Shown here: positions 11,697 through 60,036 of the stretch, one piece after another
How positions within the stretch are numbered: the first letter of the stretch is position 1
How the letters are laid out: the number at the start of each line of letters is the position of its first letter
DNA from: a virus
IMG/VR virus record: IMGVR_UViG_3300045988_171964
Length of the DNA stretch: 64,000 nucleotides
Direction: 5' to 3' (one strand)
Position numbers and translations under genes: made by a program
Notes under the pieces: model-generated
The model's input: the letters and a program-made list of their open reading frames with translations, nothing else
What the model was told of the DNA's origin: nothing
Database searches by the model: none

Positions 11697-11733
11697 CTCT
11701 CGCCCCGTCCCCAGCGATTCCATCGCAGGTCCC
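11697..11733 (+). repeat. Motif-A hairpin copy A1
   Basis: CTCTCGCCCCGTCCCCAGCGATTCCATCGCAGGTCCC. Confidence 0.85.
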
Positions 11734-11742
11734 TCAATCCTT

Positions 11743-11778
11743 TTGTCCCCATCTCTCAATAAAAAACCGATACCTTTG
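11743..11778 (+). promoter_or_regulatory. phage promoter, TTGTCCCCA-N19-TACCTTTG
   Basis: TTG at 11743 and the -7 box at 11771-11778. Gene start is at 11823. Confidence 0.6.
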
Positions 11779-11822
11779 TATCGTATTAAAAAACATAGGA
11801 TAACATTAAAAAGAAAAAAGAA

Positions 11823-12428
11823 ATGCAAAGTTTAATTCCAACCCTTACCAGGTTTCTTGCAGCCATCATCGGCTTGGTGTGGTGCACACTGGAACCATCC
11901 CTTAACTACATCGCCGTATGCTTCTTCGCCCTTGTCTGCGACTGCTACACGGCATGGCGCTGCAACTGTCGCATCTATTCCCGCTATCGGGAGGCTATCA
12001 AGAAAGACCCTCGATGCAAAATCGACGGCAAACTGAAATCTAAGAAAATGGCAAAGATGGTGAAGGATTTCTCCGTCCTCATCCTTGCGATATTCTTGGC
12101 CACGATGGTAGATACCGTCATACTCGATTTCCAAAACCCTCTCCATCTTGCTAACTATCTCGCTGCCATCTATTGTGGCGTGCAACTCGTGAGCATCCTC
12201 GAAAACGAGAGTACCTGCAATGGTGCACCCTGGGCAAGAGTGATGCAGAAGATTGTGGCCGATAAAACCGAAAGGCACTTTAATGTAAAGCTGAAAGACT
12301 TGATGAAGGAAGCAACAGAAGAAGAGGGCAACAAGGAAGAGGCTACTCCGGAAGAGGATAAGAAGAAAGAAGATGATAATGACGACTGGATTCCGCAGAA
12401 ACCTGCAGACCCAGTAATGGGCATGTAA
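11823..12428 (+). CDS. holin (holin family 4_1 / TcdE-like)
   Basis: Three hydrophobic helices. The motif QLVSILENESTCNGAPW resembles the E-x-VSIL-x-N....G-x-P signature of TcdE-type holins. Charged C-terminal tail. Confidence 0.6.
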   Translation: MQSLIPTLTRFLAAIIGLVWCTLEPSLNYIAVCFFALVCDCYTAWRCNCRIYSRYREAIKKDPRCKIDGKLKSKKMAKMVKDFSVLILAIFLATMVDTVILDFQNPLHLANYLAAIYCGVQLVSILENESTCNGAPWARVMQKIVADKTERHFNVKLKDLMKEATEEEGNKEEATPEEDKKKEDDNDDWIPQKPADPVMGM

Positions 12429-12492
12429 TGTGCCAATATCTCTTAATTTCCGTACGCTATCAGTTAATAATGTGTTAAAATCTCTTTGAATT

Positions 12493-13095
12493 ATGACAAT
12501 ATCAAATGTTTTGGAACACTGGGCAACCATCTACAAGCCCTTGTCTCATAACCCGACAAGCAAGAAGCTGGAGGATCAGAGTTTCTTCCGCATTCGTGAT
12601 ATTGATGAGGAAAATATCTTTTCCCGAAACGCCAATATCATCCACTCTCCCTGTATGCTCTATCGTGTCGTTAACTCCGGAGAACTGAAATCGGATAAGC
12701 AAGCCCTGATTACTTATCAGGTCTGTTTCCTTACCCGACTGAAAGATTCCTCTGCTACATTGGGCAGATATGATGGCAGCAAATTGCAGGCTGCATCGGA
12801 TGATCTGATGGAGTATTGCGAAGACCTTGCCTCTTATCTCACTCAGCTTCGCCGCACGGGTATCTGTCCTATCACGGGCAGAAACTTCAAGACGGAAGAG
12901 CCTAAGCTGGGCATAGAGTTATCATCCGTCGATATAGAGAGTTTTGCCTATGGTGTAAACCCTCTTTTTCGTGGACCGAGCTGGCTCCTTGCTGATTGTT
13001 ATTGGCAGACTATCCGTCCGCTCTATAACTTCCAATGCGGAAAGGAGCAGAAATATATCATTCCTGCATCAACAGAAGACGGAAAGGAGGGATAA
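12493..13095 (+). CDS. hypothetical protein
   Basis: 200-aa ORF upstream of the tape measure gene. Confidence 0.5.
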   Translation: MTISNVLEHWATIYKPLSHNPTSKKLEDQSFFRIRDIDEENIFSRNANIIHSPCMLYRVVNSGELKSDKQALITYQVCFLTRLKDSSATLGRYDGSKLQAASDDLMEYCEDLASYLTQLRRTGICPITGRNFKTEEPKLGIELSSVDIESFAYGVNPLFRGPSWLLADCYWQTIRPLYNFQCGKEQKYIIPASTEDGKEG

Positions 13096-13098
13096 GCC

Positions 13099-13653
13099 AT
13101 GCCTATCAGAACCCAACCTATCAAGTCGCCTTTTGCACCCTTAAAAGAGGTGGCAGGTGTATATCTGAAGCAAGCTCTTCTTGATATAGAAGTTAACTTC
13201 AATACCCAGAAGATTTATCCGGTAGAAGTATATCGTGGCTACGAGAAGGTGAACAAATATCGCGAGGAACACGGCATGTGGTACTCTACGGGTGAAGGTA
13301 AGAAATCCTTTGAGGGTACGGTATATCAGGCTGATGAAAAGACGGGTAATCTGATGGTAGGAATCCGTTATAACGACTATCTCCGCTATGTGGATATTGG
13401 TGTAGGTTTGACGGGTGATCCTCGTGACCCTGCAGCCCATATCACTGCCGATAAGGTGGACCGCTCGAAGAAAGCTAAGTTTAAAACACGATATATCGGC
13501 AAGTGGGATAGAAGGGCAGGTAAATCTCATCGTCCTGCCATCATGCGCACGGTGAGAAGACTGAAAACGAGATACGAAAACCATCTTGCAGATTACTATG
13601 GCTACCAGGGCTTGTTGCAGATAATGAACGCCCTGGAGGGCAAAGATGAGTAA
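13099..13653 (+). CDS. hypothetical protein
   Basis: 184-aa basic ORF directly upstream of the tape measure gene. A tail-assembly role is suggested by position only. Confidence 0.5.
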   Translation: MPIRTQPIKSPFAPLKEVAGVYLKQALLDIEVNFNTQKIYPVEVYRGYEKVNKYREEHGMWYSTGEGKKSFEGTVYQADEKTGNLMVGIRYNDYLRYVDIGVGLTGDPRDPAAHITADKVDRSKKAKFKTRYIGKWDRRAGKSHRPAIMRTVRRLKTRYENHLADYYGYQGLLQIMNALEGKDE

Positions 13654-13688
13654 CTTTATAAGTATTCATATTTAAAAACAGAAACAAA

Positions 13689-16600
13689 ATGGCAAAGAAT
13701 AAAACAGAGGCTATCATCACGCTCAATGGCCAGCAGCCGCTCCAGGTACTGAAGCAGTTGCAGGAGGCAGCAGCGGGTATATCCGAGCAGATAGATGCGG
13801 CTCAGGCGAAGCTGAAAAACCTGAAGCCGAACACTGACCCATATAAAGCCCTCGATGCGACCATCAAGGATCTGAAGAAGCAGTACGATTTGCTGGCTTC
13901 TGCACAGATTAAGGATATTTCTGCCAATGAGCGTTTGCAGAGCGTAGTGGACCAGCTCAGTAATACTTCACTTCGCAACCTGCGCCGTGCATTGGGCGAC
14001 GGCAAGCGTCAGCTTGAAGGCTTGTCAGAGGCAGAACTGGATCAGGCAAACGCTATCCGCTCAATGATGAAGGAAGTAGGCGACCAGGTGCGCTTGCTCG
14101 AAGGGAAGTATGTAAAGATTGAAAAAGGACTGAAGAATATAAGCATTCAGTCTGACCAATGGCTGAGTAAGGCCATAACGCAGCAGAGAGACCTTGTGGC
14201 TTCACTCGAAAAGACAGATGCCAGCTATCTCAAGAATCACGCCACATTGAAGCAGTTGGAGAGAGAGGAGGATAGACGTAATGGCAAGCTGACTACACCG
14301 GAGGCTATGACTGTGGTGCAAGACCGAACATCTACTGCCTCCGAACTTCGCCGCGCCAAGACATCAATCACTCAGGCGAGGGATAATGTAGATACATCTG
14401 ATACTGCTCAGATAAAAGCCTATAATGAAGCCCTTGCTAAGATTGAGGAACGCCTTGATGCCGTATCGGGGAAAGCCCAGAAAACAGCCATCGGTTGGCA
14501 GAAAATGCGCCAGGTATTATCTAACCCTGGCAAGGCTTCGGGCGAGGACATTAAGCAAACCATGGACGCTATTCAGCAGAAAATACAGCAACTCCCTGCT
14601 GGAAGTAAGGCTGTATCAGATTTGCGCAGACAATACGCCCAGTTGGAACAAACTATGAAAGGTACCCGCCTCTCGCAAGCGCAGCTCAATGATATTGTCG
14701 CCCGCAGTAAGACCGGCAAGGCAAATATCAATGAGCTGAGACAGGCTTATAAGCAACTTGAGGAGGAACTGAATCAGTTAAACACCAAAAGCAAGGAATT
14801 TAACGAGAAGCAGAAGGAACTGAAGGATTTAAAGAAGAATATCGACAATGCTACTGGAGCCATAAGCCAGCAAAGTAAATCCTGGCAGACGGCATTAAAG
14901 AACCTGACCGCATACGTAGGTCTCTTTCAGGTCTTCAATGCTATCAAAGATACAGTTACTTCTGCTATCAAGAAAAACTTTGAATATTCTTCGTCTTTGA
15001 CGGATATTCGCAAGGTGTCCGGACTCACGATGCAGGATGTCAATAAACTGTCTGAGGAATTGGCTAAGATTGATACTCGTACTTCTGTTGATGGCTTGGC
15101 CCAACTTGCCTATCAGGGTGCAAAACTTGGTATGGGTAAGTATGGCGTGGAAGGTATGAAACAGTTCGTAGCTGCTGCCGACCAGATCAATGTAGCCATT
15201 GGTGAGGAAATGGGCGAGGAAGCGCTGCCGGCTCTTTCTAAAATGGTGGAGACGATGGGTCTTATCCCGAAGATGGGTATCGAAAAAGCGATGCTTGCTA
15301 CGGGTTCGGCTATGTTCAAACTGTCTTCTACCTCTACCTCTACATCTACCAATATAGTGGAGTTCGCCAAGCGATTAACCGGTGTGAGCCGTACTGCAGG
15401 TATCACTACCGACCAGTTGTTGGCTCTCGGTTCTGCATCTGATTCCCTCTTCCTGATGCCGGAGGTGAGTGCCACGGCGATGTCTAAGTTCATCGTAGCT
15501 TTGCAGAAGAACCATAACCTTATCGAGAAGGATTTGGGCATTCCGGATGGTACCATCAAAAGAATGTATGCAGCAGGCAACGCAATGGATGCCATCGTGA
15601 TGGTACTTGAAAAGATGCGAGACAAGGGTAATATGAATGCCCTTGGCGGCATCTTCAAAGACCTTGGTTCTAATGGTCAGCGACTCGTTACCGCCATGGT
15701 AACTATGTCTAAGAACGTAGATGTACTGAAGGATCATCTCTACGAGTCTAAGGAGGCATTCGAGGAGGCAACTGCTGTAACCAGCGAGTACACGATGCAG
15801 CAGCAGTCTGCCGCAGGTATATTGGATAGAGCCAATAACCTTTGGGAGAAGGCTTTTATCAATCCAGATGGTGTGGAAAGTGTAAAGTCTATGGCGCAGG
15901 CTTGGTACGATATGTCGCAGATGATCTTGCAAAGCCCGATATTCAAGAATACACTTCAGGCAGCCATGTGGAGTGTGATTACTGCTTGCAAGGTATTTGT
16001 AACTCTCCTTCCTCTCATCGCTAACTATGTTGCTGCTCTAGGTATCTATAAAGCCGTTTCGTTTCTTTGGGAATTAGGTAAGGCGATAAAAGCTGCGGCA
16101 GCTGCGCAAACGTTGTTTAATTCAGCAGCCAAGGTAAATCCTTATGTAGCTATTGCAAGTGCGATTGTCACCGCCGTAGGTGTGGTATGGTCTTTTGTGG
16201 AAGCGGATAGAGAAGCTGCTGCTGCGGAGGCAGAGGCAGCACGCAAAGCTAATGCCTGGAAAGATAAGTTGAAAGAAGCGCAGTCTCAAACTGATACGCT
16301 TACCCGAAAACTCCATTCTTATAAAACTACACTCGAAGCCCTGAACGTATCGCAGAATGCCCGAAATACGCAGATAGCCCGATTTAATCGTGATTTTCGC
16401 CAGTATATCTCTAAGTTGGGTATCGAAATCAAGAGCGTGAGCGATTTGAAGAAGCATTATTCGGAGTTAGCACAGGAAATTCAGCGTGCTACCTATTATC
16501 GCCTTCGTGAGGAAGCCAAGCAGAGCGTAATGCCTTCCTATCAGATGGATCGTCTGAATGCGGCTAACCGTATCAAGAAGGAACTTAATAATCTCGGCTT

Positions 16601-20002: not shown

Positions 20003-20050
20003 AGTGTTGAACGTTGAGTGTTAAATGTTGAATTAGGCTATCGCCTTTGG
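20003..20050. repeat. Motif-B left arm plus loop start (B3)
   Basis: AGTGTTGAACGTTGAGTGTTAAATGTTGAATTAGGCTATCGCC, fused directly to Motif-A copy A2. Confidence 0.8.
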
Positions 20051-20083
20051 GTCTCCGTTCCCAGCGAATTTTTCGCTGGTCCC
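20051..20083 (+). repeat. Motif-A hairpin copy A2 (variant loop)
   Basis: GTCTCCGTTCCCAGCGAATTTTTCGCTGGTCCC. Confidence 0.85.
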
Positions 20084-20140
20084 ATTTTGTAATAAAGCTA
20101 ATATTTTTCCGTACCAACGTTAACCCTTTGATTTAGTGGG

Positions 20141-20640
20141 CATTTTGGTCTCAAAAGCATATCTTGGTCTCATTTTTCGTCGGTTTTACTACCTATATAT
20201 AAAATTTTCCGTGTATTTTTTCTTTTCCCTAAAATCAAAATCCCCTAACCTCAAACTAGGAGTTAGTAGCATTAACGGCTATGCCGTAAACTTCAGACAA
20301 TAAGGTAGTTATGGGGATATAGGGGAGTGGCAGCTAGCGAGAGAAATGCGTGATTTTCTACATATATTCTACATATTTCTGAAATATTTTGTATCTCCTG
20401 CGTACATCTGTTTATAGAAAATTATATAAAAATGAGACCAAGATATAGTAAGTTGCTGAAAAATAAGCAGATAGTAAAAAATCAGTGTGGGCTAGCAGTG
20501 GGACAATGGTGTGGCAGCAGGGGGACAATATACGCCGTTTTAGCAATTAGGGGACTTTAACATTTCTGCTAATAAAATTAAAATGAGACCAGAATCGGCA
20601 AAATGGGACCAGATTTCGCTTCCTGGTCTCATTTTTGAAA
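20141..20640. other. putative replication origin / iteron region
   Basis: Six copies of TGGTCTCA(TTTT): forward at 20146, 20165 and 20624; reverse at 20433 and 20584, plus the variant TGGGACCA at 20604. A perfect 19-bp inverted repeat ATATCTTGGTCTCATTTTT (20159-20177 / 20429-20447) flanks ~250 bp of AT-rich DNA. No ORF. Lies just upstream of the primase-like gene. Confidence 0.5.
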
Positions 20641-20652
20641 AAACAACCTTTG

Positions 20653-20686
20653 CGTCTCCGTTCCCAGCGATTCCATCGTTGGTTCC
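20653..20686 (+). repeat. Motif-A hairpin copy A3
   Basis: CGTCTCCGTTCCCAGCGATTCCATCGTTGGTTCC, followed by C8 at 20685-20692. Confidence 0.85.
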
Positions 20687-20775
20687 CCCCCCTCTCAAAC
20701 CTATATTAAATGTTAAAAATATAACTTATTTCAAATATAATATAGCTTACCTATACTTTATTCGATTTATTTTTG

Positions 20776-20817: not shown

Positions 20818-21945
20818 ATGTTTGAGGAGATATGTTCCATCTATCGGGATGCGAAAGATGCACTCGGAAGATACGTCGATATGGAGACGGGCGAGTGCAT
20901 CACGCAGATGTCTATCCGTGAGTTCTGTCTTACGGATAGATGGAAGCCGTATGTAGAGAAGCTGAGAGCCATGCGGCAGCAGTATGGTAGCAAGGCGAAG
21001 AAGATGCCGGAGTATATCGAAACCAAGAAGATGCTTCCAGGTGCCACACTGAGCGGTCTCTTCGCTACCTACGAGGACGATAGCCTTACCCATCCCGGCC
21101 AGCGTGTGATGGTTTCCAGAAGAGAAAGCCACCTTCAGCAGCATACCGGATGGCTGGCGATAGATATTGACCTTCAGGACAACGAGGGTATTGCCGATTT
21201 CGAGAATATCCGCAGGGTGTTGGCATTTCGCCCCGAAGTAGCCCTGCTGATGCGCTCCTGCTCCGGAACTGGACTGTTTGGCTTGGTCCGTCTGGCTTAT
21301 CCAGACCATCATAAAGAGCAGTTCAAGGCATTATTGCATGAATATGCTGCAATGGGTATCATGCTCGATGGCTCCTGCGGAAACATCGGACGCGTGCGCT
21401 TTGCCTCATGGGATGATCCTGCGCATATATATATTAATGAACGCGCGATTCCATATACCAAACTGCCCGATAACGTACCTACACCAATGCCCGTGATGAA
21501 CTATGCCAACACATATTTCAGTGGCAGCCATCCGACTGGTGTTGGCTATGGAGGCAGCTATCCGCATAGCGGACAGGGCACCTACAGACGGGACACACCG
21601 GAAATCATCTATCGCAAAGCTTTGCGCCTTGTTGAGAAGATAGAGGCTCAAGGCATTGATATTTGTGCCGGAAAGGATGCTAATAGCGGTTATCTGGGTT
21701 GGGTGAAATGCGGCATGTCGCTTTACCATGTGGATAGAACGGCGGGTTATGACCTATGGAGAAGAGTTTCCCGCTTCCGTCCTGCTGACTCTACCTGCGG
21801 CCACAATGAAATGGATTTCCGCAAGCGATGGAACCAGTTCGCTAATTACAACAAGATTTCTGAGGCAACTTTCTTCGACTACTGCAAGCGGTCGGGCATC
21901 TTCCTCACCAGGGAAGACTGGAAAGAGATATATCAGAATACTTAG
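20818..21945 (+). CDS. primase / replication-initiator-like protein
   Basis: WLAIDIDLQDNEG...LLMRSCSGTGLFGLVRL resembles BT4734/VirE N-terminal-type domains. GYLGWVKCGMSLYHV..GYDLWRRVSRF resembles a PriCT-type helical domain. Sits beside the iteron region. Confidence 0.5.
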   Translation: MFEEICSIYRDAKDALGRYVDMETGECITQMSIREFCLTDRWKPYVEKLRAMRQQYGSKAKKMPEYIETKKMLPGATLSGLFATYEDDSLTHPGQRVMVSRRESHLQQHTGWLAIDIDLQDNEGIADFENIRRVLAFRPEVALLMRSCSGTGLFGLVRLAYPDHHKEQFKALLHEYAAMGIMLDGSCGNIGRVRFASWDDPAHIYINERAIPYTKLPDNVPTPMPVMNYANTYFSGSHPTGVGYGGSYPHSGQGTYRRDTPEIIYRKALRLVEKIEAQGIDICAGKDANSGYLGWVKCGMSLYHVDRTAGYDLWRRVSRFRPADSTCGHNEMDFRKRWNQFANYNKISEATFFDYCKRSGIFLTREDWKEIYQNT

Positions 21946-21948
21946 AAA

Positions 21949-21983
21949 GCGCCTCCGTTCCCAGCGATTCTACCGCTGGTCCA
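21949..21983 (+). repeat. Motif-A hairpin copy A4
   Basis: GCGCCTCCGTTCCCAGCGATTCTACCGCTGGTCCA. Confidence 0.85.
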
Positions 21984-22025
21984 CAAGCAAGGAAAAATAT
22001 TTTAATACATAAAAGATTAAAGATT

Positions 22026-26580: not shown

Positions 26581-26584
26581 TTTT

Positions 26585-26620
26585 TTGTCCCTATCTGTCC
26601 ACGTTTTCCCATTACCTTTG
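26585..26620 (+). promoter_or_regulatory. phage promoter, TTGTCCCTA-N19-TACCTTTG
   Basis: TTG at 26585 and the -7 box at 26613-26620, in the same 28-nt register. Confidence 0.55.
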
Positions 26621-28431: not shown

Positions 28432-29733
28432 ATGGTAACACTTCCTAAAGATTTTATTGGCACTACTGCCTTGCAGCATGTAGCCGAGCAGGTAACTAAG
28501 GAAATCCTTATGGGTCCAGGTTACACCGATGCAGAGGAGATGGACCGCTTGGCTATCGACATCGTTTCTGGTGTTCAGTACAAGCGTACTATCCACATTC
28601 TGCTCCGTAAGGGCGGTACTACCCGCCGTAAGGACGTTCACACTAAGGTGAACAGCGAGGTAGGTTTCTTGAAGGAGCGCACAATTACAGTGAAACTCGC
28701 TTGGGACCATTATACAGATAACATCGACAAGTACTGCGAGACAGTATTTGGTACAGACGCACAGGGTCAGTACCCTCTCGCTACCGAGGCTGCTACTGCT
28801 ATCCTCGCCAACTATGCCGACAACTTGACCGCTTGCTTGTGGAATGGTGACATCGCTCTTGATAAGGGTGATGAGAGCACACCAGCTTCAGAGCAGGCTA
28901 TGGCTCTCTATGATGGTTTCCATACCTGTATCAAGCACGACATCGAGGACGGTCTTATCAGCGAGGCTAACGGCAACTTGATTCATTGTGAGTCAATTGA
29001 CAAGCCTTCTAGCAACGAGGACTCTACTCCTTACGATAACTTCTTGGATTGGCACCTGAAGTGGGATGCCCGTCTGCGCAAGCAGAACGTTCTCGTTTAC
29101 ATGAGCGAGTTGACAGCTCAGTACATCGCTGCAGGTTACGCTAACAAGTTCCACGGCAACTTCAAGGTTGAGTACGAGAACGGCGGTAACTTCAAGCTTC
29201 CAGGTCTTTCTCGTGTAACTCTCTGCCCTATCGCAGATTTCGGTGAGGGTGATCGTATGTACGTTACCATCCCTAAGAACTTCGTTTACGCAGTTGACTC
29301 TGAGGGTAACAAGACTTACGTAGGCGTTAAGGTAGGCACTGACGACGATATGCGCGACATCCAGTTCCAGATTCAGTCAATCCAGGGTGCAGGTGTCCGC
29401 AATCCGTTCAAGTACGCCTTTGCGATGTCAGATGGTGACCTTGCAGCTGCCGAGTATGTAGCTGGTGACTATACCAACTCTAACCTCGTAGTAACAACCG
29501 CAATGGAGGATGCTTCTACGGTTACAGATGGTAAGGTAAAGGTAAACGGCGCAGCTTATACTGCCCCAGTAGCTACAACCGCTAACCAGGTTATCACCTT
29601 GGAGGCAGAGGACGGCACAACCGATACCTTCTCTTACTGGAGCTTCGGCAACAAGAAGATTACGGATAAGAAGATTCAGCTTGCTGCCACCGGCACAAGC
29701 ATGGGTGTCACCGCCTTCTTCAAGAAGGGTTAG
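28432..29733 (+). CDS. major capsid protein (putative)
   Basis: 433 aa, directly downstream of the protease-scaffold gene, with strongly biased codon usage. Called by position only; no diagnostic motif. Confidence 0.6.
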   Translation: MVTLPKDFIGTTALQHVAEQVTKEILMGPGYTDAEEMDRLAIDIVSGVQYKRTIHILLRKGGTTRRKDVHTKVNSEVGFLKERTITVKLAWDHYTDNIDKYCETVFGTDAQGQYPLATEAATAILANYADNLTACLWNGDIALDKGDESTPASEQAMALYDGFHTCIKHDIEDGLISEANGNLIHCESIDKPSSNEDSTPYDNFLDWHLKWDARLRKQNVLVYMSELTAQYIAAGYANKFHGNFKVEYENGGNFKLPGLSRVTLCPIADFGEGDRMYVTIPKNFVYAVDSEGNKTYVGVKVGTDDDMRDIQFQIQSIQGAGVRNPFKYAFAMSDGDLAAAEYVAGDYTNSNLVVTTAMEDASTVTDGKVKVNGAAYTAPVATTANQVITLEAEDGTTDTFSYWSFGNKKITDKKIQLAATGTSMGVTAFFKKG

Positions 29734-29735
29734 CC

Positions 29736-29775
29736 CTCTCCTGCCCCCGTCCCCAGTGATTCCATCGCTGGTCCA
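29736..29775 (+). repeat. Motif-A hairpin copy A5
   Basis: CTCTCCTGCCCCCGTCCCCAGTGATTCCATCGCTGGTCCA. Confidence 0.85.
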
Positions 29776-29878
29776 ACCGGGAAAAGGCAGTCCTCTATAA
29801 ATCCTCGGCGGCGGTCGCCTGACCTGGCGGAATATGGCTTCCGCCGCCATTTCGTTTAATCATTAAAAAGATACAATT

Positions 29879-33877: not shown

Positions 33878-33998
33878 TTTGTTTTGAAATAGGTGATATG
33901 GATTTCGCACTAGCGAGTGCAAGTATTTAAAGTAAAAAGATTGGGATAACATTTTTTGAAGCCTCTTTGCGCCTACAAAAGCCGCAGGGAGGCTTTCT

Positions 33999-34034
33999 TT
34001 GTCCCCATCATCTTTTTAGCATTTGCTATCTTTG
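33999..34034 (+). promoter_or_regulatory. phage promoter, TTGTCCCCA-N19-TATCTTTG
   Basis: TTG at 33999 and the -7 box at 34027-34034. Gene start is at 34072. Confidence 0.6.
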
Positions 34035-34647: not shown

Positions 34648-35262
34648 ATGGCTTCTTACAATGGAAATGTTGACCTTTTGTCTCTGAATGGAGCAAAGGT
34701 CTTAGTAGGTATCGATGAGAAGAATGTAAAGCGTCCTTATGTTTGCATTCCTCTGGATGTAAACGAAATTCGAATAGAGACATATCAAAAAGATAATGTT
34801 AACAGACAGGTGGCTAAGTTGAGAGTTCACATCGAACCTTTTAAAGATTCGTACAAGAATAAGATTCGACAGAGTAATATCGAGCGTGGCGACACCGACA
34901 AAAGTGTGCCTACCCACGAAATGCAAATATCATTCTCCACCGAGTACGTCAAGGCAGTAGCCAAAGCATTCCCGAAACTCGTAGAACAGGTAAAGGAGTA
35001 TAGTAAGGAGAAAGACCCTGACATCGTAAATCAGGATTTCAACGACGAGAACTCTCACCTCTTCAAGGCAATCCGTACTCGCATGAATAAGCGCATCGCC
35101 AGCCTCTATCAGCCACAGACCGCTACCCAGCAGCAGACGTACCCACAGCAAGCCTACGGAGCCGCTGGCAACGCTACCGCCTATGTACCGCCAGCAGATG
35201 GAGGCAATGATTACTCTTCAATGCCAGGTTACGATGATCCGAACAGCGACCTGCCATTCTAA
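34648..35262 (+). CDS. putative single-stranded DNA-binding protein
   Basis: Q/P/G-rich flexible tail ending in the acidic tip DDPNSDLPF, like the bacterial SSB C-terminal D-D-D-(I/L)-P-F. The N-terminal fold was not recognised. Confidence 0.4.
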   Translation: MASYNGNVDLLSLNGAKVLVGIDEKNVKRPYVCIPLDVNEIRIETYQKDNVNRQVAKLRVHIEPFKDSYKNKIRQSNIERGDTDKSVPTHEMQISFSTEYVKAVAKAFPKLVEQVKEYSKEKDPDIVNQDFNDENSHLFKAIRTRMNKRIASLYQPQTATQQQTYPQQAYGAAGNATAYVPPADGGNDYSSMPGYDDPNSDLPF

Positions 35263-35270
35263 AGGTTTTA

Positions 35271-35364
35271 TTGAATGTTGAATGTTGAGTGTTGAATGTT
35301 GATTTAGGCTAGCGCCCTTGAGTCCGTGAGGCAACTCAACATTCAACATTCAACAATCAACATT
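35271..35364. repeat. Motif-B heptamer hairpin, full copy (B6)
   Basis: Arms of ~30 nt. Loop reads TTTAGGCTAGCGCCCTTGAGTCCGTGAGGCAA. Confidence 0.9.
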
Positions 35365-35377
35365 AAATTTAACGCTT

Positions 35378-39471: not shown

Positions 39472-39646
39472 GCAAGCCATCATTACTCACTATCGAACCG
39501 AGGAAGCGAAGGCATATCGCAAGATACACGGCGACAGAGGCGGTTGCCGTTATAAGGATAAATACCATCGTCCAAGCCCATCACCCTGGAGTAACTGCAT
39601 TTCCACCGTAACAAAAGATAATCTTTTATGGCAGCAATACGAATAA
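39464..39646 (+). CDS. C5-MTase TRD-like mini-ORF h (60 aa)
   Basis: ..RTEEAKAYRKIHGDRGG...SNCISTVTKDNLLWQQYE. Confidence 0.5.
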   Translation: MIRQAIITHYRTEEAKAYRKIHGDRGGCRYKDKYHRPSPSPWSNCISTVTKDNLLWQQYE

Positions 39647-39786
39647 GAACCTGCGCAAGCAGAGGCAGAGCAGATGGAGATTGGTATTCCAATCCTCACT
39701 CCCAAAGGTTAGAAATCGGGGGGGGTATCAGTAACGCCATCTCCTCCATCGCCAAGGATTTCATGATCATTATCAATTATGAATAA
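39628..39786 (+). pseudogene. degenerate C5-MTase motif IX-X remnant (52-aa ORF i)
   Basis: MAAIRIRTCASRGRADGDWYSNPHSQRLEIGGGISNAISSIAKDF. IRIR and SQR..IG.GIS...IAK echo motifs IX and X, but motif IX is only legible (SRWRLVF) in another frame. Contains G8 at 39718-39725. Confidence 0.35.
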
Positions 39787-39795
39787 AAAGAGGAG

Positions 39796-39826
39796 CCACC
39801 GTTCCCAGCGATTCTATCGCTGGTCC
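39796..39826 (+). repeat. Motif-A hairpin copy A7
   Basis: CCACCGTTCCCAGCGATTCTATCGCTGGTCC. Confidence 0.85.
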
Positions 39827-39836
39827 CCTCCCCTCT

Positions 39837-39872
39837 TTGTCCCCACCAAAACCACAAAAACCCCTAACTTTA
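39837..39872 (+). promoter_or_regulatory. phage promoter, TTGTCCCCA-N19-TAACTTTA
   Basis: TTG at 39837 and a variant -7 box at 39865-39872, in the same register. Confidence 0.5.
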
Positions 39873-39966: not shown

Positions 39967-41784
39967 ATGGCAAGCAAAAACAAAAACAGAGTAACCAACC
40001 TGCAGCAGCTCCTAAATCGTAGTGAGGAACTGAAAGATGCAGGCTATGTAGCCGTTCGCCCGGATGCCTTTACGCCGCTTAAAAATGGCGGCGGTAAAGT
40101 CTTTTCCTGGAACGACTACGTTCACGGCATGCTCCTAACCACAGCCGGTATGTCGGCAAGCGGTGGCGACACAGGCGGTTCTGCAGCACGTCAGCAAGTC
40201 TCCACTATCTTTGCATCGAGTGGCGGCGAGAACCTGGGTAAACCGAAGGACGTAGGTACCGAAGGCTTAGGCTTTATGGAATGGGGTATGGCCAACCGAC
40301 TGCCAAATCTTATCTGGATGCTTTCCCGTATGTCGCCTTTTACAGCAGCAGGAGTAGATTACATCAAGAAGATACTGGTAGGTCGCGGTCCCGCAGCCAA
40401 GTATCATTACACCCAGTACGTTGGCGGTAACATCACGGAGAAGTATATCCCCTACGAGAGCGCAGGAGTTCTTCTCCGAGGTCAGATAGCTGACCTCAAA
40501 GCCAAGGAAGAGGCAGCCGCCGAAGCCAAGCGCCAGAACGAGCAGCAGAACCAGAACGGGCAGTCTCAACAGGAGGAGTCTCCGTTCTCTGCGGTTCAAT
40601 CGCAGGTCTTATCCACCGATGAAGAGGAAAGCGAGGAGATGAAATCCCTGAAAGAAGCACTCCACAAATGGGAAGAAACCAATGCCCAGCTTCGTGATTT
40701 CTTAGAAAACAACGACCTGATGCAGACCTTCCTCGATTTGGCAGGAGATATGGCTTTGATGTCACAATGCTTTGTAGAACTTCAGCTTAATCAGCGTTCC
40801 CTCGACGAGAACGGCAAAGCTGTTCCCACCGCTCAATGGACTCCGAAGGTGATCGGTCTGAAGCATCGCAGTATCTTCACTACCCGACTGGAGCGCATGG
40901 ACGAGAACTACCGCATCAACTATGCCTACGTCAGCAATCAGTGGCTCGACCCTACCCAATACGTCGGTGTGCAGAAAGAGGAAGACCGCAAGATAGCGGC
41001 TATCCCTTATCTCCCTACCCCATCAGCCGTGAAGGATTTGCAGCGCAAGATACGCGAGGCACGTCAGAAGAACGTAAGCCGCAAGAAACGCCCTACTCGC
41101 TTCATCATGTCGCCAAGAGATTTCGGCGGTCCATACTATGCCGATGCCCTTTGGCACTCCATCTTTGCCGGCAGCATTTTTGAGTATGCCTTCACCATCG
41201 TAGATGACCGCCTTACCCGAAAGCGCAACAGTAACATCATCGGTAGAGTTATCTATATCCATCAGGACTATATCAGCAGGCTCTATCAGCAGCAGGGTGA
41301 GAAGAAAAAGAAGACCCAGGGCGAGATTCAGAACGAAATCTTTACCTCTATCAATACCTGGCTCTCTAACCCCGATAATGCTGGTCAGGCGCTCATTTCC
41401 TCTGCCTTCACGGGCAGCGATGGGAATGAGCACAAAGCTTGGGAAATCGTAGAAATCGAAACCAAGGCAAATGATCAGGCGAATGCCGACAAAACCGAGT
41501 TGCAGGAAATAAGCAGCATCATCTTCTTTGCCATGGGACTTGATGCAAAGCTCATTGGTAATACCCCTGGCGATACGGCATCATCGGGCGGTACAGACCT
41601 GAGAGAGCGCTTCCTTGTCAAGCAAATCCAGTTTGCTCCTTTACAGCAGTTAATGATACGCCCGTTGGAAGTTTTGAGCCGATTCAACGATTGGGATGAG
41701 CACCTGGTATGGCAGATAGACCGAGAGGTATTGACCACCCTCGATAACTCGAAGACCGGAGTGGCGAAACAAGAGGCCTCTTAA
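39967..41784 (+). CDS. portal protein (putative)
   Basis: 605 aa. It opens the long plus-strand virion block behind a phage promoter. Size and overall character fit a portal, but there is no diagnostic motif. Confidence 0.5.
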   Translation: MASKNKNRVTNLQQLLNRSEELKDAGYVAVRPDAFTPLKNGGGKVFSWNDYVHGMLLTTAGMSASGGDTGGSAARQQVSTIFASSGGENLGKPKDVGTEGLGFMEWGMANRLPNLIWMLSRMSPFTAAGVDYIKKILVGRGPAAKYHYTQYVGGNITEKYIPYESAGVLLRGQIADLKAKEEAAAEAKRQNEQQNQNGQSQQEESPFSAVQSQVLSTDEEESEEMKSLKEALHKWEETNAQLRDFLENNDLMQTFLDLAGDMALMSQCFVELQLNQRSLDENGKAVPTAQWTPKVIGLKHRSIFTTRLERMDENYRINYAYVSNQWLDPTQYVGVQKEEDRKIAAIPYLPTPSAVKDLQRKIREARQKNVSRKKRPTRFIMSPRDFGGPYYADALWHSIFAGSIFEYAFTIVDDRLTRKRNSNIIGRVIYIHQDYISRLYQQQGEKKKKTQGEIQNEIFTSINTWLSNPDNAGQALISSAFTGSDGNEHKAWEIVEIETKANDQANADKTELQEISSIIFFAMGLDAKLIGNTPGDTASSGGTDLRERFLVKQIQFAPLQQLMIRPLEVLSRFNDWDEHLVWQIDREVLTTLDNSKTGVAKQEAS

Positions 41785-43112: not shown

Positions 43113-44225
43113 ATGGAAAATTTATCTTTACAGGAAATCATCAGCATCTTGGAGCCAGCTATCGGCGCAAGAATGCTTACCCAGGAACAGAAGGATGCTT
43201 ATGAGCAGGGATTGTCTCTCCTGGAAGGTGCAAGTAATGCACGCTCGTTTATCGAGAACTCTCGTAAGTTTAAAGACTACCATCGCCGTACCCGACAGAT
43301 GATCGCCTATCTCAACAGCTACAACAACTCTCAAGCTAACGCTGCATCATCTGCTACCGACAAGCGACGTGTTGGCCGACCTACCAAGCAGGAACAGGCT
43401 GAGTATGCCGAACTTCAGAAAAAGAAAGCCATGGAAGAGGCGAAGCAGTCTCTCTTCCCTAGCCTGAAACCGGACACCACCCTGCAGCCGCTTACCTATA
43501 ATGGTATCGTAGCCAACCCTAACGGCGAAAGTATCGCTGCCACCATGCCCAACCTAATGCAGTTGCGTCCGTTCCTCTCTACCGCCCTGCAGGAGCAGGT
43601 GAACACCGTGCGTGACCTCCGCAGCGAGATGGCAAGCAAGGCAGAACAGGCTAAGACCAGGGCTGAAGCCAACGAGAAAGCCATCTCTCAAGGCAAAAGT
43701 GCCGTCTACACCGAGGATGAGATTGCCGAACTCGCCACAAGAGCCGTAGAAATCGAAAGCGATATTCTTCCGGAAATCTTCAAGGCTGTAGATAGAGAAA
43801 TGGGCGAGTGTTATCTGCGACTGAGCGAGAAGACCGGAGACCCTGAATATATCGCCTATGTAAAGAAAACCTTTACCGTGGACCCTCAGACCCTCCGTAC
43901 CCAGTTTAAGCCATTCTACGAGAAGGCGCAATCCCGTGACCCTCGATTTGCCGAGCAGGTAGCCGAAAAGATTGCCAACGACCGTCCGGAAGTAAAGGCA
44001 GCACGCGATGCAGCCGCCAAGCACAAAGCAGAAGCCGATGCTCGCATCAAGTATATCCTTCGCAAGGATAAGCCATCTACTCAGACGAGAGTGAAAGGCA
44101 TCAAGGAGCGCATAGACCAACTTCGCCAGGATTTCTCTGACATCGTGACCGAAGAGGAGATTTCCGGCTATGAAGCTATTCTCACCAAAACTATAGAAGA
44201 AGCCAAAGAGGATCCCGAAGCATAA
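43113..44225 (+). CDS. hypothetical coiled-coil protein
   Basis: 370 aa, K/E/A-rich. Confidence 0.45.
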   Translation: MENLSLQEIISILEPAIGARMLTQEQKDAYEQGLSLLEGASNARSFIENSRKFKDYHRRTRQMIAYLNSYNNSQANAASSATDKRRVGRPTKQEQAEYAELQKKKAMEEAKQSLFPSLKPDTTLQPLTYNGIVANPNGESIAATMPNLMQLRPFLSTALQEQVNTVRDLRSEMASKAEQAKTRAEANEKAISQGKSAVYTEDEIAELATRAVEIESDILPEIFKAVDREMGECYLRLSEKTGDPEYIAYVKKTFTVDPQTLRTQFKPFYEKAQSRDPRFAEQVAEKIANDRPEVKAARDAAAKHKAEADARIKYILRKDKPSTQTRVKGIKERIDQLRQDFSDIVTEEEISGYEAILTKTIEEAKEDPEA

Positions 44226-44230: not shown

Positions 44231-44266
44231 CTCTCGCCCCCGTTCCCAGCGATTTCATCGCTGGGT
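44231..44266 (+). repeat. Motif-A hairpin copy A8
   Basis: CTCTCGCCCCCGTTCCCAGCGATTTCATCGCTGGGT. Confidence 0.85.
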
Positions 44267-44274
44267 TCTTTTTT

Positions 44275-44310
44275 ATGTCCCCCCTAATAAGAAAAAACCT
44301 CCTATCTTTG
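44275..44310 (+). promoter_or_regulatory. phage promoter variant, ATGTCCCCC-N19-TATCTTTG
   Basis: -7 box at 44303-44310 in the same register. Gene start is at 44337. Confidence 0.5.
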
Positions 44311-47840: not shown

Positions 47841-47876
47841 CTCTCGCCCCCGTTCCCAGCGATTCTATCGCTGGTC
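47841..47876 (+). repeat. Motif-A hairpin copy A9
   Basis: CTCTCGCCCCCGTTCCCAGCGATTCTATCGCTGGTC. Confidence 0.9.
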
Positions 47877-47908
47877 TCACAATAAGAAACATAAAAAATG
47901 AAATAAAA

Positions 47909-49117
47909 ATGGATAAAAAGATATTGATTACCGGAACCGGTATTCATTCTGCCCTAGGCAGAAGTACAAGAGAAGTAGCCATGAACCTCTATAAGGGTAA
48001 ATGCGGATTGCATCACGACGAATGCCGCGATAAATACAATTCCGATTTATGTGGCAATGTACCTAGTTGGAAAGCAGAGTGTCTGGATATACTTACCCAC
48101 GCGCAATACGAATGTATGCCTGCACATGGTTTTTATGTGCTCGATGCGGTATTCGAGGCGCTGAAGAAAGCAAAGGTCAGTAAGGAGTTTCTTGAAAACC
48201 ATAATGTTTCACTTATCGTAAGTAACGACTCAGAATGTTATGAAAGCAAAGTTGTGGTCTCTCACGTAAAAAAGAACATCTCTAATCGTAGACTTCCGGT
48301 AACAACCCTATTCCGTTCACTTAATTCCACTATCAGCATGAACCTGGCCACTATCCTCGGCATTCATGGTTTATCGCTCACCGTTAGCGCAGCCTGTGCA
48401 GGAGGTGGCCACGCCATCGGACTAGCAAAGATGTTGCTCGATAGCAAACAGACTGAAATGGTAATTGTGATTGGTGCGCAGGAATGCGGATCTCAATATT
48501 GCATGGAAGCTTTCGATGCCCTCGGTGTCTTCTCACCTGATAAAGTACAGCCGTTTGGTAAAGGCAGAAACGGATTGGCACCATCTGGTGGCGCAGCCTG
48601 CATCATCCTCGAACCATCGGATAGTCTTCGATTGAAAGAAGAGAAGGTGCATTCATTCGCTTCCCTTTCCGGCTATGGCTTCTCTACCAATGGAAAAGCT
48701 ATCACTACCCCTGATAGTTATCAGGAAGAAGTATCTATGCTGAATGCTATCGAGAATGCAGGTTTGGATGAAGGCATGATAGACGTAGTACTTGCTCATG
48801 CTACCGGCACACCGATGGGCGATGAAGCCGAGGCAAAGGCAATAGAGAGGATCTTCCCTATCTGTCCGAACGTAGTAGCTACAAAAGGTATGACGGGTCA
48901 CGAGTGTTGGATGGCAGGTGTATCGCAAGCCATACAAGCTACCATCATGCTTACATACGGTCGTCTGTTCCATGCAGCCACTACCGAGGAGAACGCCTTC
49001 CCGAAATTGAACCTGGTGATGCGCCCTAAGTATTATTCCCCTCATCATATCCTCTGTAATGCCTTTGGCTTTGGAGGTACAAACTCCTCATTCGTTATTT
49101 CGAATGTTGAATGTTGA
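47909..49117 (+). CDS. beta-ketoacyl-ACP synthase (FabF/FabB-type, Cys-His-His)
   Basis: ILITGTGIHSALG; active-site Cys in LTVSAACAGGGHAIG; first His in VLAHATGTPMGDEAE; second His in ATKGMTGHECWMAG; NAFGFGGTNSSFVI. The last codons lie in the Motif-B left arm. Confidence 0.9.
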   Translation: MDKKILITGTGIHSALGRSTREVAMNLYKGKCGLHHDECRDKYNSDLCGNVPSWKAECLDILTHAQYECMPAHGFYVLDAVFEALKKAKVSKEFLENHNVSLIVSNDSECYESKVVVSHVKKNISNRRLPVTTLFRSLNSTISMNLATILGIHGLSLTVSAACAGGGHAIGLAKMLLDSKQTEMVIVIGAQECGSQYCMEAFDALGVFSPDKVQPFGKGRNGLAPSGGAACIILEPSDSLRLKEEKVHSFASLSGYGFSTNGKAITTPDSYQEEVSMLNAIENAGLDEGMIDVVLAHATGTPMGDEAEAKAIERIFPICPNVVATKGMTGHECWMAGVSQAIQATIMLTYGRLFHAATTEENAFPKLNLVMRPKYYSPHHILCNAFGFGGTNSSFVISNVEC

Positions 49118-49138
49118 GTGTTGATTTAGGCTAGTGCC
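49102..49138. repeat. Motif-B left arm plus loop start (B7)
   Basis: GAATGTTGAATGTTGAGTGTTGATTTAGGCTAGTGCC, fused to Motif-A copy A10 as at B3/A2. Confidence 0.85.
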
Positions 49139-49140
49139 TT

Positions 49141-49175
49141 CGCGCCTCCGTTCCCAGCGATTCTATCGCTGGTCA
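49141..49175 (+). repeat. Motif-A hairpin copy A10
   Basis: CGCGCCTCCGTTCCCAGCGATTCTATCGCTGGTCA. Confidence 0.9.
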
Positions 49176-49200
49176 GTTACTAATAAAAAGCAAAAAAAAT

Positions 49201-49473
49201 ATGAAAAAAGAAGAAATAACCTCTCGCATTATCACCATCGTGAACAGCCTGAAAACATCATGGGTAAAGCACGAAGTAACACCTGCATCTAACCTTCGTG
49301 ACGAGGTAGAACTGGAGTCTCTTGATTTCCTCGATATGATCCAGCAGGTGGAAATGATGTTCCATATCAAGATTACCCCGGAAGAGGCGAAAGATTGCAA
49401 GCTCGTTTCCGATGTAATTGCGCTCGCCGAGCGCAAAGTCAACATTCAACATTCAACACTCAACACTAAATAA
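49201..49473 (+). CDS. acyl carrier protein
   Basis: LRDEVELESLDFLDMIQQVEMMFHIKITPEEA aligns with the ACP helix II region ([20 protein letters not shown]), with the phosphopantetheine Ser in ESLD. The C-terminal NIQHSTLNTK is encoded by the Motif-B right arm. Confidence 0.85.
   Translation: MKKEEITSRIITIVNSLKTSWVKHEVTPASNLRDEVELESLDFLDMIQQVEMMFHIKITPEEAKDCKLVSDVIALAERKVNIQHSTLNTK
49439..49468. repeat. Motif-B right arm only (B8)
   Basis: TCAACATTCAACATTCAACACTCAACACTA. Confidence 0.85.
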
Positions 49474-50531: not shown

Positions 50532-50659
50532 TGTTGAATGCTTTTATTAATGTTGAGTGTTGAATGTTGAATGTTGATTTAGGCTAGCGCCGTTGAGTCC
50601 GTTAGGCAATTCAACATTCAACATTCAACACTCAACATTTAAAAATCCCATTCAACATT
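50531..50659. repeat. Motif-B heptamer hairpin, extended full copy (B9)
   Basis: Main arms at 50549-50577 / 50610-50639. Loop reads TTTAGGCTAGCGCCGTTGAGTCCGTTAGGCAA. An extra outer arm pair lies at 50531-50540 / 50651-50659. Confidence 0.9.
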
Positions 50660-50661
50660 TT

Positions 50662-50697
50662 TTGTCCCCACTAAAAAAGCGAAAACCTTTATCTTTG
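50662..50697 (+). promoter_or_regulatory. phage promoter, TTGTCCCCA-N19-TATCTTTG
   Basis: TTG at 50662 and the -7 box at 50690-50697. Gene start is at 50730. Confidence 0.6.
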
Positions 50698-59349: not shown

Positions 59350-59396
59350 ATAGCGTTAGAATTTGGCAAGAAAGCCGTTCTAACGCTATTTTTTTT
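59350..59396 (+). terminator. intrinsic terminator ending the virion block
   Basis: 12-bp stem ATAGCGTTAGAA / TTCTAACGCTAT followed by T8. Confidence 0.85.
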
Positions 59397-59685
59397 GTGT
59401 GAATGCGTCTCATATCGTGGAATGGAGTTGGTATACAACTAAAGATATGATTGATTCTTGCTTTACCGTAATGATAGTAACAGCAATGTTTTATATATAC
59501 GGATTTTTTGACATGTTTATCAGTCGCCTCAAGTTAGGACGTAAAATCTGTGCATGATTATGGGAAAGATACTAAATTATGAGAGAAGATTTGGCAATAT
59601 AAGGTATATCCCCTGCCATGTTTCGAGTGGGAAGATGTGGTGAGATGTTTCCTCGTTATCCTTCTCGGCTGGCTCATCTCTTAAA

Positions 59686-59711
59686 AGTAAAAAGGTAAAA
59701 AGGTAAAAAAA
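59686..59711. repeat. GTAAAAAG x3 A-tract repeat (second copy)
   Basis: CTCTTAAAAGTAAAAAGGTAAAAAGGTAAAAAAAG. Compare 41786-41818. Confidence 0.75.
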
Positions 59712-59724
59712 GCCTTAACCCCTT

Positions 59725-59758
59725 TGCGCCCCCGTTCCCAGCGATTCCATCGCTGGTC
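59725..59758 (+). repeat. Motif-A hairpin copy A11
   Basis: TGCGCCCCCGTTCCCAGCGATTCCATCGCTGGTC. Confidence 0.9.
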
Positions 59759-59764
59759 CGTAAC

Positions 59765-59816
59765 TTTAAAAAAGCCCTGCTATCCATCGCGGACGGCAGG
59801 GCTGCATCGTTTTTTA
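59765..59816. terminator. bidirectional intrinsic terminator
   Basis: AGCCCTGC / GCAGGGCT stem, flanked by A6 upstream and by a T6 run 7 nt downstream (GCATCG spacer). Confidence 0.6.
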
Positions 59817-59904
59817 ATACTTTTTTAAAGATTATAACACCGCCACCTTTTTTACGGGCAGCGGAATTTCGACTGCAAAGATACGAAGAAAAACCGAGAT
59901 ATGT

Positions 59905-59964
59905 AGAGAAATTCAGAGAAAATCGGAGAAATTCAGAGAAAATCAGAGAAAAACTAGAAATCAT
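59905..59964. repeat. 5-6 x 10-bp tandem repeat AGAGAAAWTC
   Basis: AGAGAAATTC AGAGAAAATC GGAGAAATTC AGAGAAAATC AGAGAAAAAC TAGAAATCAT, with helical-turn periodicity. Confidence 0.85.
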
Positions 59965-60007
59965 CTGTAAATCTTTGTTCATATCCGTAAGAATTGTCCG
60001 TTTTTTC

Positions 60008-60036
60008 GTAGTAAAGTGCCCGACCCAAGCGATTCT
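60008..60036 (+). repeat. Motif-A hairpin copy A12 (degenerate)
   Basis: GCCCGACCCAAGCGATTCTTTCGCTGTTC. Confidence 0.5.

Follow-up and report, generated by a model that had tools for sequence, protein, structure and literature searches.

A number of stem-loop repeats and phage regulatory cassettes have been described that resemble motif-A, a polar hairpin element of about 35-40 nucleotides (nt) recurring in 64,000 nt of phage DNA (IMG/VR virus record IMGVR_UViG_3300045988_171964; this whole stretch is called the window). The CGTC-tagged superfamily of repetitive extragenic palindromes (REPs) has units made up of an unpaired tag, a stem of 8-9 bp, a short loop and a 3-nt tail, which lie downstream of genes and sometimes within them and have no associated transposase, and the Rickettsia palindromic elements (RPEs) RPE-4 and RPE-6 have been equated with these repeats (Di Nocera et al. 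2013, PMC3733652). In E. coli, REP325 reportedly acts both as a terminator that depends in part on Rho and as a stabiliser of mRNA (bioRxiv 10.64898/2026.03.23.713779). The PeSL cassettes of T4-type phages combine a conserved stem-loop with a promoter, recur between phage genes and are tied to the gain, loss and replacement of genes among close relatives (PMC2839356, PMC4122927). Motif-A is an interspersed repeat of the chromosome of Segatella (Prevotella) copri that is common to the phages of this host and denser in them.

Each unit of motif-A consists of a C-rich leader, GCCCCCGT[T/C]C, followed by an 8-bp hairpin, CCAGCGAT-TCY-ATCGCTGG, and a TCC(CC) tail. Like the CGTC-tagged REPs it is a short interspersed palindrome that combines a conserved, unpaired tag at one end (CGT[T/C]C) with a stem of 8 bp, a short loop and a tail of about 3 nt; most copies follow coding regions, where the neighbouring genes are unidirectional or convergent, head-to-head dimers and intragenic units occur, and no transposase was found beside the copies examined. 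However, CGTTC is the commoner tag, present in 78% of host copies compared with 20% for CGTC (among 86 of these CCGTTC occurs 67 times and CCGTCC 17 times, with one C between tag and stem). The stem of motif-A starts with CC/GG, its loop is TCY and its tail TCC, whereas CGTC-tagged REPs begin the stem with two A/T pairs, have loops of 4-5 nt and end in a CCA-like tail. Dimers predominate among the latter, but motif-A occurs mostly as singletons, about 90% of them in the sense orientation, and differs further in being common to phages and denser there. Because first stem pairs, loop length and tail do not fit the CGTC superfamily, and the tag resembles CGTC in its minority form only, motif-A is filed as a new REP-like family instead. 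The general features of REPs are all present, namely dispersed chromosomal copies at non-homologous sites, a maintained stem-loop and an extragenic location mainly downstream of genes, and motif-A very probably constitutes a new REP-like repeat family of the S. copri lineage, common to its tailed phages of about 100 kb.

Other known systems are more distant. The GTAG tag of the REPs that form REPtrons with REP-associated tyrosine transposases (RAYTs) is absent, and no RAYT was found in the loci examined, a genome-wide search for one not having been made. Like the RPEs, motif-A can lie in frame in variable surface or linker regions with one frame preferred, but it is mostly intergenic, with only about 15% of unique copies in open reading frames, and its hosts are a free-living gut bacterium and the phages of that bacterium; the classical RPE-1 is also much longer than the motif-A unit. 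The likeness to E. coli REP325 is a functional analogy only: both are hairpin repeats of intercistronic regions and 3' untranslated regions (3'UTRs), and the positions of motif-A fit attenuation of read-through together with protection of the upstream mRNA. There is no sequence relation to the E. coli REPs, which occur in both orientations and in clusters (bacterial interspersed mosaic elements), unlike motif-A with its sense bias. Where motif-A adjoins a promoter it forms, as PeSLs do, a composite of hairpin and promoter, with the hairpin ending 3-15 nt upstream in 31 of 33 promoter contexts, within intergenic modules that are swapped, but PeSLs are phage-specific, whereas motif-A is also a host chromosomal repeat and mostly has no promoter beside it. 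No paper carrying the motif-A hairpin sequence was found in the literature searched, nor anything specific on repeats, terminators or RAYTs in S. copri; RepRanger covers neither Prevotella nor Segatella.

Distribution in Segatella copri and its phages

When one genome per bacterial species was scanned for the exact hairpin, about 76 of the 120 loci listed belonged to S. copri or uncultured Prevotella and had the full element, and the corresponding scan of viral contigs found motif-A with the same leader in more than 100 IMG/VR gut phage contigs. The chromosomal copies in S. copri are flanked by unrelated sequence and have among their neighbours trpD-trpC, rlmH-uvrA, NlpE, histidine kinases and a TonB-dependent receptor. 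The remaining genome matches listed (Planctomycetota, Acidobacteriota, Rhizobium and others) consist of the 19-mer only, with the leader absent, and such matches outside Segatella/Prevotella are unrelated to motif-A. At 13 loci the sequence belongs to another repeat, AATAGC-CCAGCGATTTYATCGCTGG-G, which is found in Planctomycetota, Acidobacteriota and other metagenome-assembled genomes with GTCCCnnnGGGAC-type hairpins on both flanks; in these distant phyla it looks like another structured repeat or the end of a mobile element.

Among the phages, close relatives of the window (78-99% amino acid (aa) identity) contain 97 copies of motif-A in 351 kb, but no copy was found in 175 kb of distant relatives (56-66% aa identity), either with the hairpin pattern or with a covariance model, R1, of the kind that the preliminary description had proposed as a check. 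The window itself has approximately one copy per 5.5 kb. Around the seed copies the host density was roughly estimated at one per 50-150 kb, the estimated number per genome being about 25-80, and the phage density is by estimate some 10-25 times that of the host. The loop is mostly TCC rather than TCT in the host (75 to 9), but in the phages half of the loops are TCT (107 to 104); because loop usage differs in this way, the phage copies form a population of their own rather than being fresh captures from the host.

The window is part of a tailed phage of about 100 kb whose relatives form a large family of IMG/VR contigs, mostly of about 50-110 kb, from human gut samples. It encodes a 2072-aa tape-measure protein, a head maturation protease, a 2105-aa tail-fibre-like protein and a holin, together with ThyX, three DNA methylases, a BT4734/PriCT-type primase-like protein and a Cro/CI-type helix-turn-helix protein; no tRNA genes were found in the window. 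Megablast of 15 kb of the window against INPHARED gave no near relative and tblastn matches of the head protease were limited to cultured Bacteroidota phages, at 28% identity, so that in the absence of a close deposited relative the family is uncultured. The host is identified as S. copri because spacers of a CRISPR array in strain F3-48 (locus L123, 7331-8000, repeat GTTGTATATCTTTTGACTCCTACATCAAACCACAAC) match the phage family: six of nine do so, one of which matches the tape-measure gene of the window at 15086-15112. One spacer of this array holds the whole motif-A hairpin, which is itself repeated many times in the host's own chromosome.

Structure, orientation and gene context

Conservation of motif-A is position by position from the final 10 nt of the leader, through stem and loop, to the opening 2-5 nt of the tail, and the consensus of the host and other Prevotella copies is (AAAAGGT)n-AGAGCCTTAACCCCTTTGCGCCCCCGTTC-CCAGCGATTCCATCGCTGG-TCCCC. 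Units of the CCCCTTTG type are gained or lost in the leader, the C-rich tract amounts to about 20 + 5 nt, and the loop is either of 3 nt (TCY) or, with a 7-bp stem, of 5 nt. The hairpin has a minimum free energy of -11.9 kcal/mol (z = -4.8) and the leader is predicted to be unpaired.

The hairpin is a real structure under selection. Amongst 315 unique copies there are at least six independent double substitutions that preserve pairing, at pairs 2 (C-G to A-T and to G-C), 3 (A-T to G-C and to T-A), 7 (A-T to T-A) and 8 (T-A to A-T). The preliminary description had already seen a hint of structure conservation in a few variants. In a formal count both sides had changed at four of the eight pairs, and 96.3% of cells were paired compared with 15.6-46.9% when the partners were slid; none of 500 shuffles reached the observed covariation score. 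The alignment was enriched for variants and most loci had been retrieved by the exact hairpin pattern, as a result of which overall sequence conservation is overestimated; the compensatory events are nonetheless real.

Motif-A is strongly polar with respect to transcription. Its orientation is sense to the nearest gene upstream in 66 of 74 host copies (about 90%, p = 2e-12) and in 110 of 115 phage copies (about 96%), and an RNA-level role, suggested in the preliminary description, is plausible for an element with this polarity. The same source had set against such a role a generic REP-like repeat, common in the host chromosome in both orientations; motif-A does occur widely in the host chromosome, but not in both orientations equally. 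Inverted copies come in pairs 60-90 nt apart, and both of the tail-to-tail pairs (L230 and L238) flank one shared terminator hairpin. The host dimers number five head-to-head and two tail-to-tail, 65 of the 76 host loci having a single copy. Since inverted copies lie so close together and orientation follows the upstream gene, polarity tracks transcription and not replication. A replication-polar signal of the Chi/KOPS type was rejected on these same two grounds. CRISPR-like solitary repeats were rejected as well, the copies being kilobases apart and present in host housekeeping operons, as were integron attC sites.

A canonical hairpin plus T-tract terminator is found within 130 nt downstream of 13 of 75 host copies and upstream of three of 75; host copies are often 15-50 nt ahead of such a terminator, and a cassette of about 120 nt, in which (AAAAGGT)n and motif-A are joined to a canonical terminator, is found repeatedly at host loci that are not homologous. 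With a separate terminator downstream, motif-A in these cases would be located in the transcribed 3'UTR and would not be the terminator itself. Elsewhere it is intercistronic, as between trpD and trpC in the host and at 21947, 47842 and 49140 in the window. Comparison of trpD-trpC and rlmH-uvrA orthologues across the host says nothing about constraint because the flanking genes are themselves approximately 98-99% identical. The usual tail is TCCCC, and a T-tract follows the hairpin in only one of 12 window copies, 14 of 220 phage copies and one of 75 host copies; motif-A therefore generally lacks the GC-rich hairpin plus U-tract of an intrinsic (Rho-independent) terminator. The preliminary description was thus usually right that it is no classic terminator, and its statement that no U-tract follows the stem holds for every window copy other than 44232-44270.

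Copies in the window and associated features

The pattern CCAGCGAT-NNN-ATCGCTGG, with up to two mismatches allowed, has 11 matches in the window, all on the + strand, compared with 0.03 expected from shuffles. R1, for which 60 copies of a 39-nt unit were used and which was run over the whole window without filters, gave these copies 42.6-60.4 bits (E 6e-10 to 8e-15), found no full-length match on the - strand, and brought the number of strong copies to 12 with an additional one at 40574-40612. Of the 12 copies originally described, all in a single orientation, the orientation and the first 11 coordinates thus stand; the degenerate twelfth (60019-60048, +) scores 7.2 bits (E 2.6), which is not significant alone, and is at best a decayed remnant of motif-A, and the copy at 40574-40612 had been overlooked.

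Seven of the copies follow a stop codon, as had been proposed for most, six of them at 16-37 nt from stop to hairpin and the seventh by a looser measure. Copy 4 (21947-21985) is intercistronic, with an A.C mismatch at pair 7, its hairpin (21961) beginning 16 nt past the stop codon of the primase-like gene 20818-21945. Copy 5 (29739-29777), with U.G at pair 5, has its hairpin (29753) 20 nt after the stop of a 433-aa gene, 28432-29733. The hairpin of copy 7 (39791-39829) starts at 39805, 19 nt after the stop of 39628-39786, the last of nine small overlapping open reading frames (ORFs), and ends 12 nt upstream of a promoter at 39836. Copy 8 (44232-44270) has a 9-bp stem, CCCAGCGATTTCATCGCTGGG, followed by TTCTTTTTT, which is the canonical intrinsic terminator form, and the scan calls it terminator-like; its hairpin (44246) begins 21 nt beyond the stop codon of gene 43113-44225, and a promoter variant at 44273 is directly downstream. 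Copy 9 (47842-47880) separates a 949-aa gene from a ketoacyl-synthase gene, the hairpin (47856) starting 20 nt after the stop of the former and ending 34 nt before the latter, and is missing from many relatives of more than 90% identity. Copy 10 (49140-49178, hairpin 49154) lies between the ketoacyl-synthase and acyl carrier protein (ACP) genes; most relatives are without it, and in them these genes adjoin each other, in some cases with an (AAAAGGT)n array in between. The looser case is copy 2 (20047-20085, hairpin 20061), 154 nt past the stop of the tape-measure gene and joined to half of a (TGTTGA)n element; its stem, CCAGCGAA-TTT-TTCGCTGG, has a compensatory A-T at pair 8 and scores 48.9 bits.

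The remaining copies are differently placed. Copy 1 (11698-11735, hairpin 11711; 42.6 bits) is in a divergent intergenic promoter region and has an A.A mismatch in the stem (ATCGCAGG); its hairpin ends 12 nt upstream of the promoter at 11742, and the same stem variant also precedes promoters at L066 and L259. Copy 3 (20650-20688, hairpin 20664), with G.U at pair 4, is preceded by a canonical hairpin plus T terminator at 20605-20636 and closes a non-coding, iteron-like stretch of about 600 nt ahead of the primase-like gene. Copy 11 (59724-59762, hairpin 59738), which has the host-like form and at 60.4 bits the highest score, has an (AAAAGGT)n array upstream (59690-59723) and a canonical terminator downstream (59774-59815). 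Copy 6 (35653-35691, hairpin 35667) is in frame within the conserved 366-aa gene 35378-36478, where it encodes ..APVPSDSIAG.. in a hypervariable linker. The copy at 40574-40612 (30.2 bits, E 1.5e-6) is likewise in frame, in gene 39967-41784 (..ESPFSAVQSQV..); its stem, TCTGCGGT/ATCGCAGG, includes two G.U pairs and, at pair 3, a compensatory T-A, and an orthologous variant, CCTGCGGTTCAATCGCAGG, is present in L002 and L114. Copy 1 and the two copies within ORFs do not, therefore, follow a stop codon.

Motif-A is evolutionarily labile in the phages. In phages with more than 90%-identical flanking genes, the sites of copies 47842 and 49140 hold motif-A, an (AAAAGGT)n array, another hairpin or nothing at all, and at empty sites the stop and the next start codon are 2 nt apart or overlap. 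The linker of gene 35378-36478 is hypervariable in relatives of 56-66% identity, where motif-A is absent, whilst across relatives of 78-99% identity the hairpin nucleotides of copy 35653-35691 are kept even when the leader has diverged. The relatives of this gene (L240-L319) encode a conserved phage protein of 340-366 aa with the hypervariable linker at alignment columns of about 78-110, the linker containing the peptide encoded by motif-A in one clade and unrelated, often Lys/Arg-rich, sequence in others. Altogether 52 of 315 unique copies, in at least three different genes, are spanned by ORFs, and 46 of the 52 are read in the PVPSDSIAG frame (p = 2e-16 against equal frame use).

Three of the copies adjoin promoter-like sites of a distinct class, TTTGTCCC(C)-N21-TAnnTTT, which has six exact sites on the + strand of the window compared with 0 expected, plus one variant (4435-4470, 11742-11777, 26584-26619, 33998-34033, 39836-39871, 44273-44310 and 50661-50696). 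A Bacteroidota-type promoter pattern was used in place of a sigma-70 model, a scan with which gave 39 sites in the window against 41 expected and is uninformative for Bacteroidota. The class has the Bacteroidota-type -33/-7 layout with an extended TCCCC, every site is just downstream of a hairpin module, and the sites probably define middle or late transcription units. Four copies had been placed ahead of promoter-like elements in the preliminary description. Three of these associations survive, at 11742 (TTTGTCCCC-N21-TACCTTT, directly downstream of copy 1), at 39836 (directly downstream of copy 7) and at the variant 44273 (TTATGTCCCCCC-N-TATCTTTG, directly downstream of copy 8); that at 20664 is not convincing. 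The other four of the seven sites are preceded by canonical terminators or by long (TGTTGA)n-armed hairpins. Across the phage loci motif-A ends 3-15 nt upstream, with 12 nt the commonest spacing, in 33 of 84 promoter contexts, and a promoter lies downstream of 31 of 229 phage copies (about 14%). Orthologous promoters may bear either kind of module: that at 33998 has another hairpin in the window and motif-A in L259, and that at 50661 is similarly swapped in L043 and L014, where motif-A bears a T-tract. Motif-A is thus positionally interchangeable with terminator-type hairpins.

Several other repeats and genes accompany motif-A. A second repeat family consists of long hairpins with (TGTTGA/TGTTGAG)n arms and a TTTAGGCTAGCGCC..GGCAA core (at about 4345-4430, at 35262-35377 and at about 50570-50655), which often end in a T-run immediately ahead of a promoter; half copies at about 20010-20046 and 49100-49139 are joined to motif-A, and related sequence is also found in three S. 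copri loci. The (AAAAGGT)n arrays between stop and start codons occur in the host and throughout the phage family, distant relatives included, with many intergenic sites in L320-L376, and their copy number differs even where genomes are nearly identical; in Bacteroidota, which lack Shine-Dalgarno sequences, such A-rich arrays could serve as translation leaders. The non-coding stretch of about 600 nt at 20080-20660, with repeated GAGACCA/TGGTCTC iteron-like words, is upstream of the primase-like gene 20818-21945, has a motif-A copy at either end (20047 and 20650) and is a possible replication origin. The late, tail-proximal block contains a beta-ketoacyl synthase (PF00109/PF02801; 47909-49117, +) and an acyl-carrier-like protein (PP-binding; 49201-49473, +), an unusual auxiliary function that is kept across the phage family at 58-99% identity. 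On the - strand a PAPS-reductase-domain protein lies beside two N6/N4 DNA methylases (10908-11597, 8878-9576 and 8093-8923) and a C5 cytosine methylase is encoded at 37079-38380 (+); this DNA-modification set may protect the phage from host restriction.

Function and alternative explanations

Taken as a whole, the best explanation, and one that is on balance probable, is that motif-A is a REP-like repeat shared with the host and acting on RNA in 3'UTRs and between cistrons. Motif-A would be transcribed within 3'UTRs and intercistronic RNA, where its stable hairpin (about -12 kcal/mol) would act in cis, via host machinery, as a barrier to 3'-to-5' decay. The hairpin may also be a partial, context-dependent stop to transcription, and would take the full intrinsic terminator form where a U-tract follows, as at 44232-44270. 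The phage would thereby partition its long same-strand (+) operons with a signal recognised by the host. The specific role of RNA barrier or attenuator is put forward more tentatively, as a possibility that falls a little short of probable.

A number of points weigh against an RNA-acting host repeat. The sequence of stem, loop and leader is conserved far beyond what a simple decay barrier needs, even though part of this conservation is ascertainment bias from retrieval by the exact hairpin; the near-invariance suggests a sequence-specific host factor, homogenisation by copying, or both. Single changes that retain pairing on the + strand (G.U) and on the - strand (A.C) number 16 and 11 (p = 0.44), and since these counts do not separate the strands the hairpin could matter equally in DNA. 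Copy 1 has no + strand gene before it and precedes even the first promoter of the + strand block, so that a role in RNA there would need a promoter further upstream. Finally, the number of copies in the host has been estimated only roughly.

The strongest alternative is that motif-A is selfish mobile DNA without a function of its own, either a REP-like repeat or miniature inverted-repeat transposable element or a recombination-driven cassette, which moves between S. copri and its phages and whose location and orientation reflect tolerated insertions or the insertion mechanism. It is compatible with an RNA-acting host repeat and partly overlaps it, but as an account in its own right we regard it as somewhat unlikely. 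The turnover described above, with sites empty, occupied by (AAAAGGT)n or by another hairpin in phages with almost the same flanks, is what such an element would produce, as are the in-frame copies in at least three genes, which favour one flexible peptide much as Rickettsia RPEs do, the composites with other repeat modules and the unit-wise variation of the leader; near-identical sequence in phage and host would fit recent copying or gene conversion. However, comparison of filled and empty sites revealed neither terminal inverted repeats nor target-site duplication, and no transposase was found among the annotated genes of the window or beside the inverted pairs examined (glycosyltransferase genes lie between the two copies at L230), no genome-wide RAYT search having been made. 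Neutral insertion would not be expected to give so strong a sense bias, nor to keep the hairpin nucleotides of an in-ORF copy across relatives of 78-99% identity whilst the linker around them diverges. A composite proposal, that motif-A is the site of a sequence-specific RNA-binding or processing factor of Segatella, multiplied some 10-25-fold by the phages, and/or a mobile repeat without a transposase that passes between phage and host and lands in frame, is unlikely.

It is more doubtful still that motif-A is purely the binding site of a dedicated sequence-specific factor, multiplied by the phage to capture that factor, and we rate this as improbable. The factor could act on RNA, as an endonuclease that processes it, as an RNA chaperone or by way of Rho loading or its opposite, an anti-Rho effect, or on DNA, as a transcription factor bound upstream of promoters. 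Conservation of the 10-nt leader, stem, loop and tail by position and not just by composition is as a binding site requires, and the greater density in phages accords with capture. The DNA form would account for the tight spacing to the -33-like element in the 33 promoter contexts and is favoured by copy 1, which has a promoter downstream but no gene ahead of it. For the RNA form, the C-rich flanks around the hairpin recall the rutA-boxB-rutB layout of lambda tR1, but the C-rich tract is short for a rut site. No candidate protein has been identified, a promoter adjoins only a small minority of phage copies, the fixed spacing may reflect the copying of composite cassettes, and host copies are in the ordinary 3'UTRs of unrelated genes.

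A phage-specific nut-like (boxA/boxB) antitermination site or a site for a phage early protein, as proposed in the preliminary description from the lambda-like layout of a conserved single-stranded segment adjoining a sense-strand hairpin, from the one polarity of all window copies and from the position of some ahead of promoters, is largely refuted by the host distribution and is now highly improbable, since the same element and leader occur between housekeeping genes in uninfected S. copri chromosomes, most copies are at gene 3' ends and others in ORFs rather than in operon leaders, near-identical phages can dispense with copies, there is no boxA similarity (an N-like protein was not tested for), and Rfam gave no match at gathering score in the whole window and only chance-level matches in an E-value scan around copy 59724-59762.

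For the window, then, a phage-specific regulatory hypothesis is replaced by a simpler one, that the phage uses the host's own repeat, and it is the sharing between phage and host, the enrichment in phages and the in-frame copies that raise the finding above the routine. The finding also documents that intergenic regions of these phages are rapidly remodelled module by module and that a repeat can be inserted in frame in phage genes. Motif-A may also serve as a signature tying uncultured phage contigs to their host, in the close relatives of the window and not in the distant ones. S. copri is among the most abundant bacteria of the human gut, yet to our knowledge almost nothing has been published on its post-transcriptional control, on which the literature searched here likewise yielded nothing, and its phylum is, as far as we know, one without Hfq and ProQ. 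Were motif-A the site of a host factor multiplied by phages, the phages would be plugging their operons into a host pathway. A polar element of about 35 nt, conserved base by base in the host and in a widespread phage family, would provide a handle on the factor or mechanism that acts at the transcript ends of S. copri.

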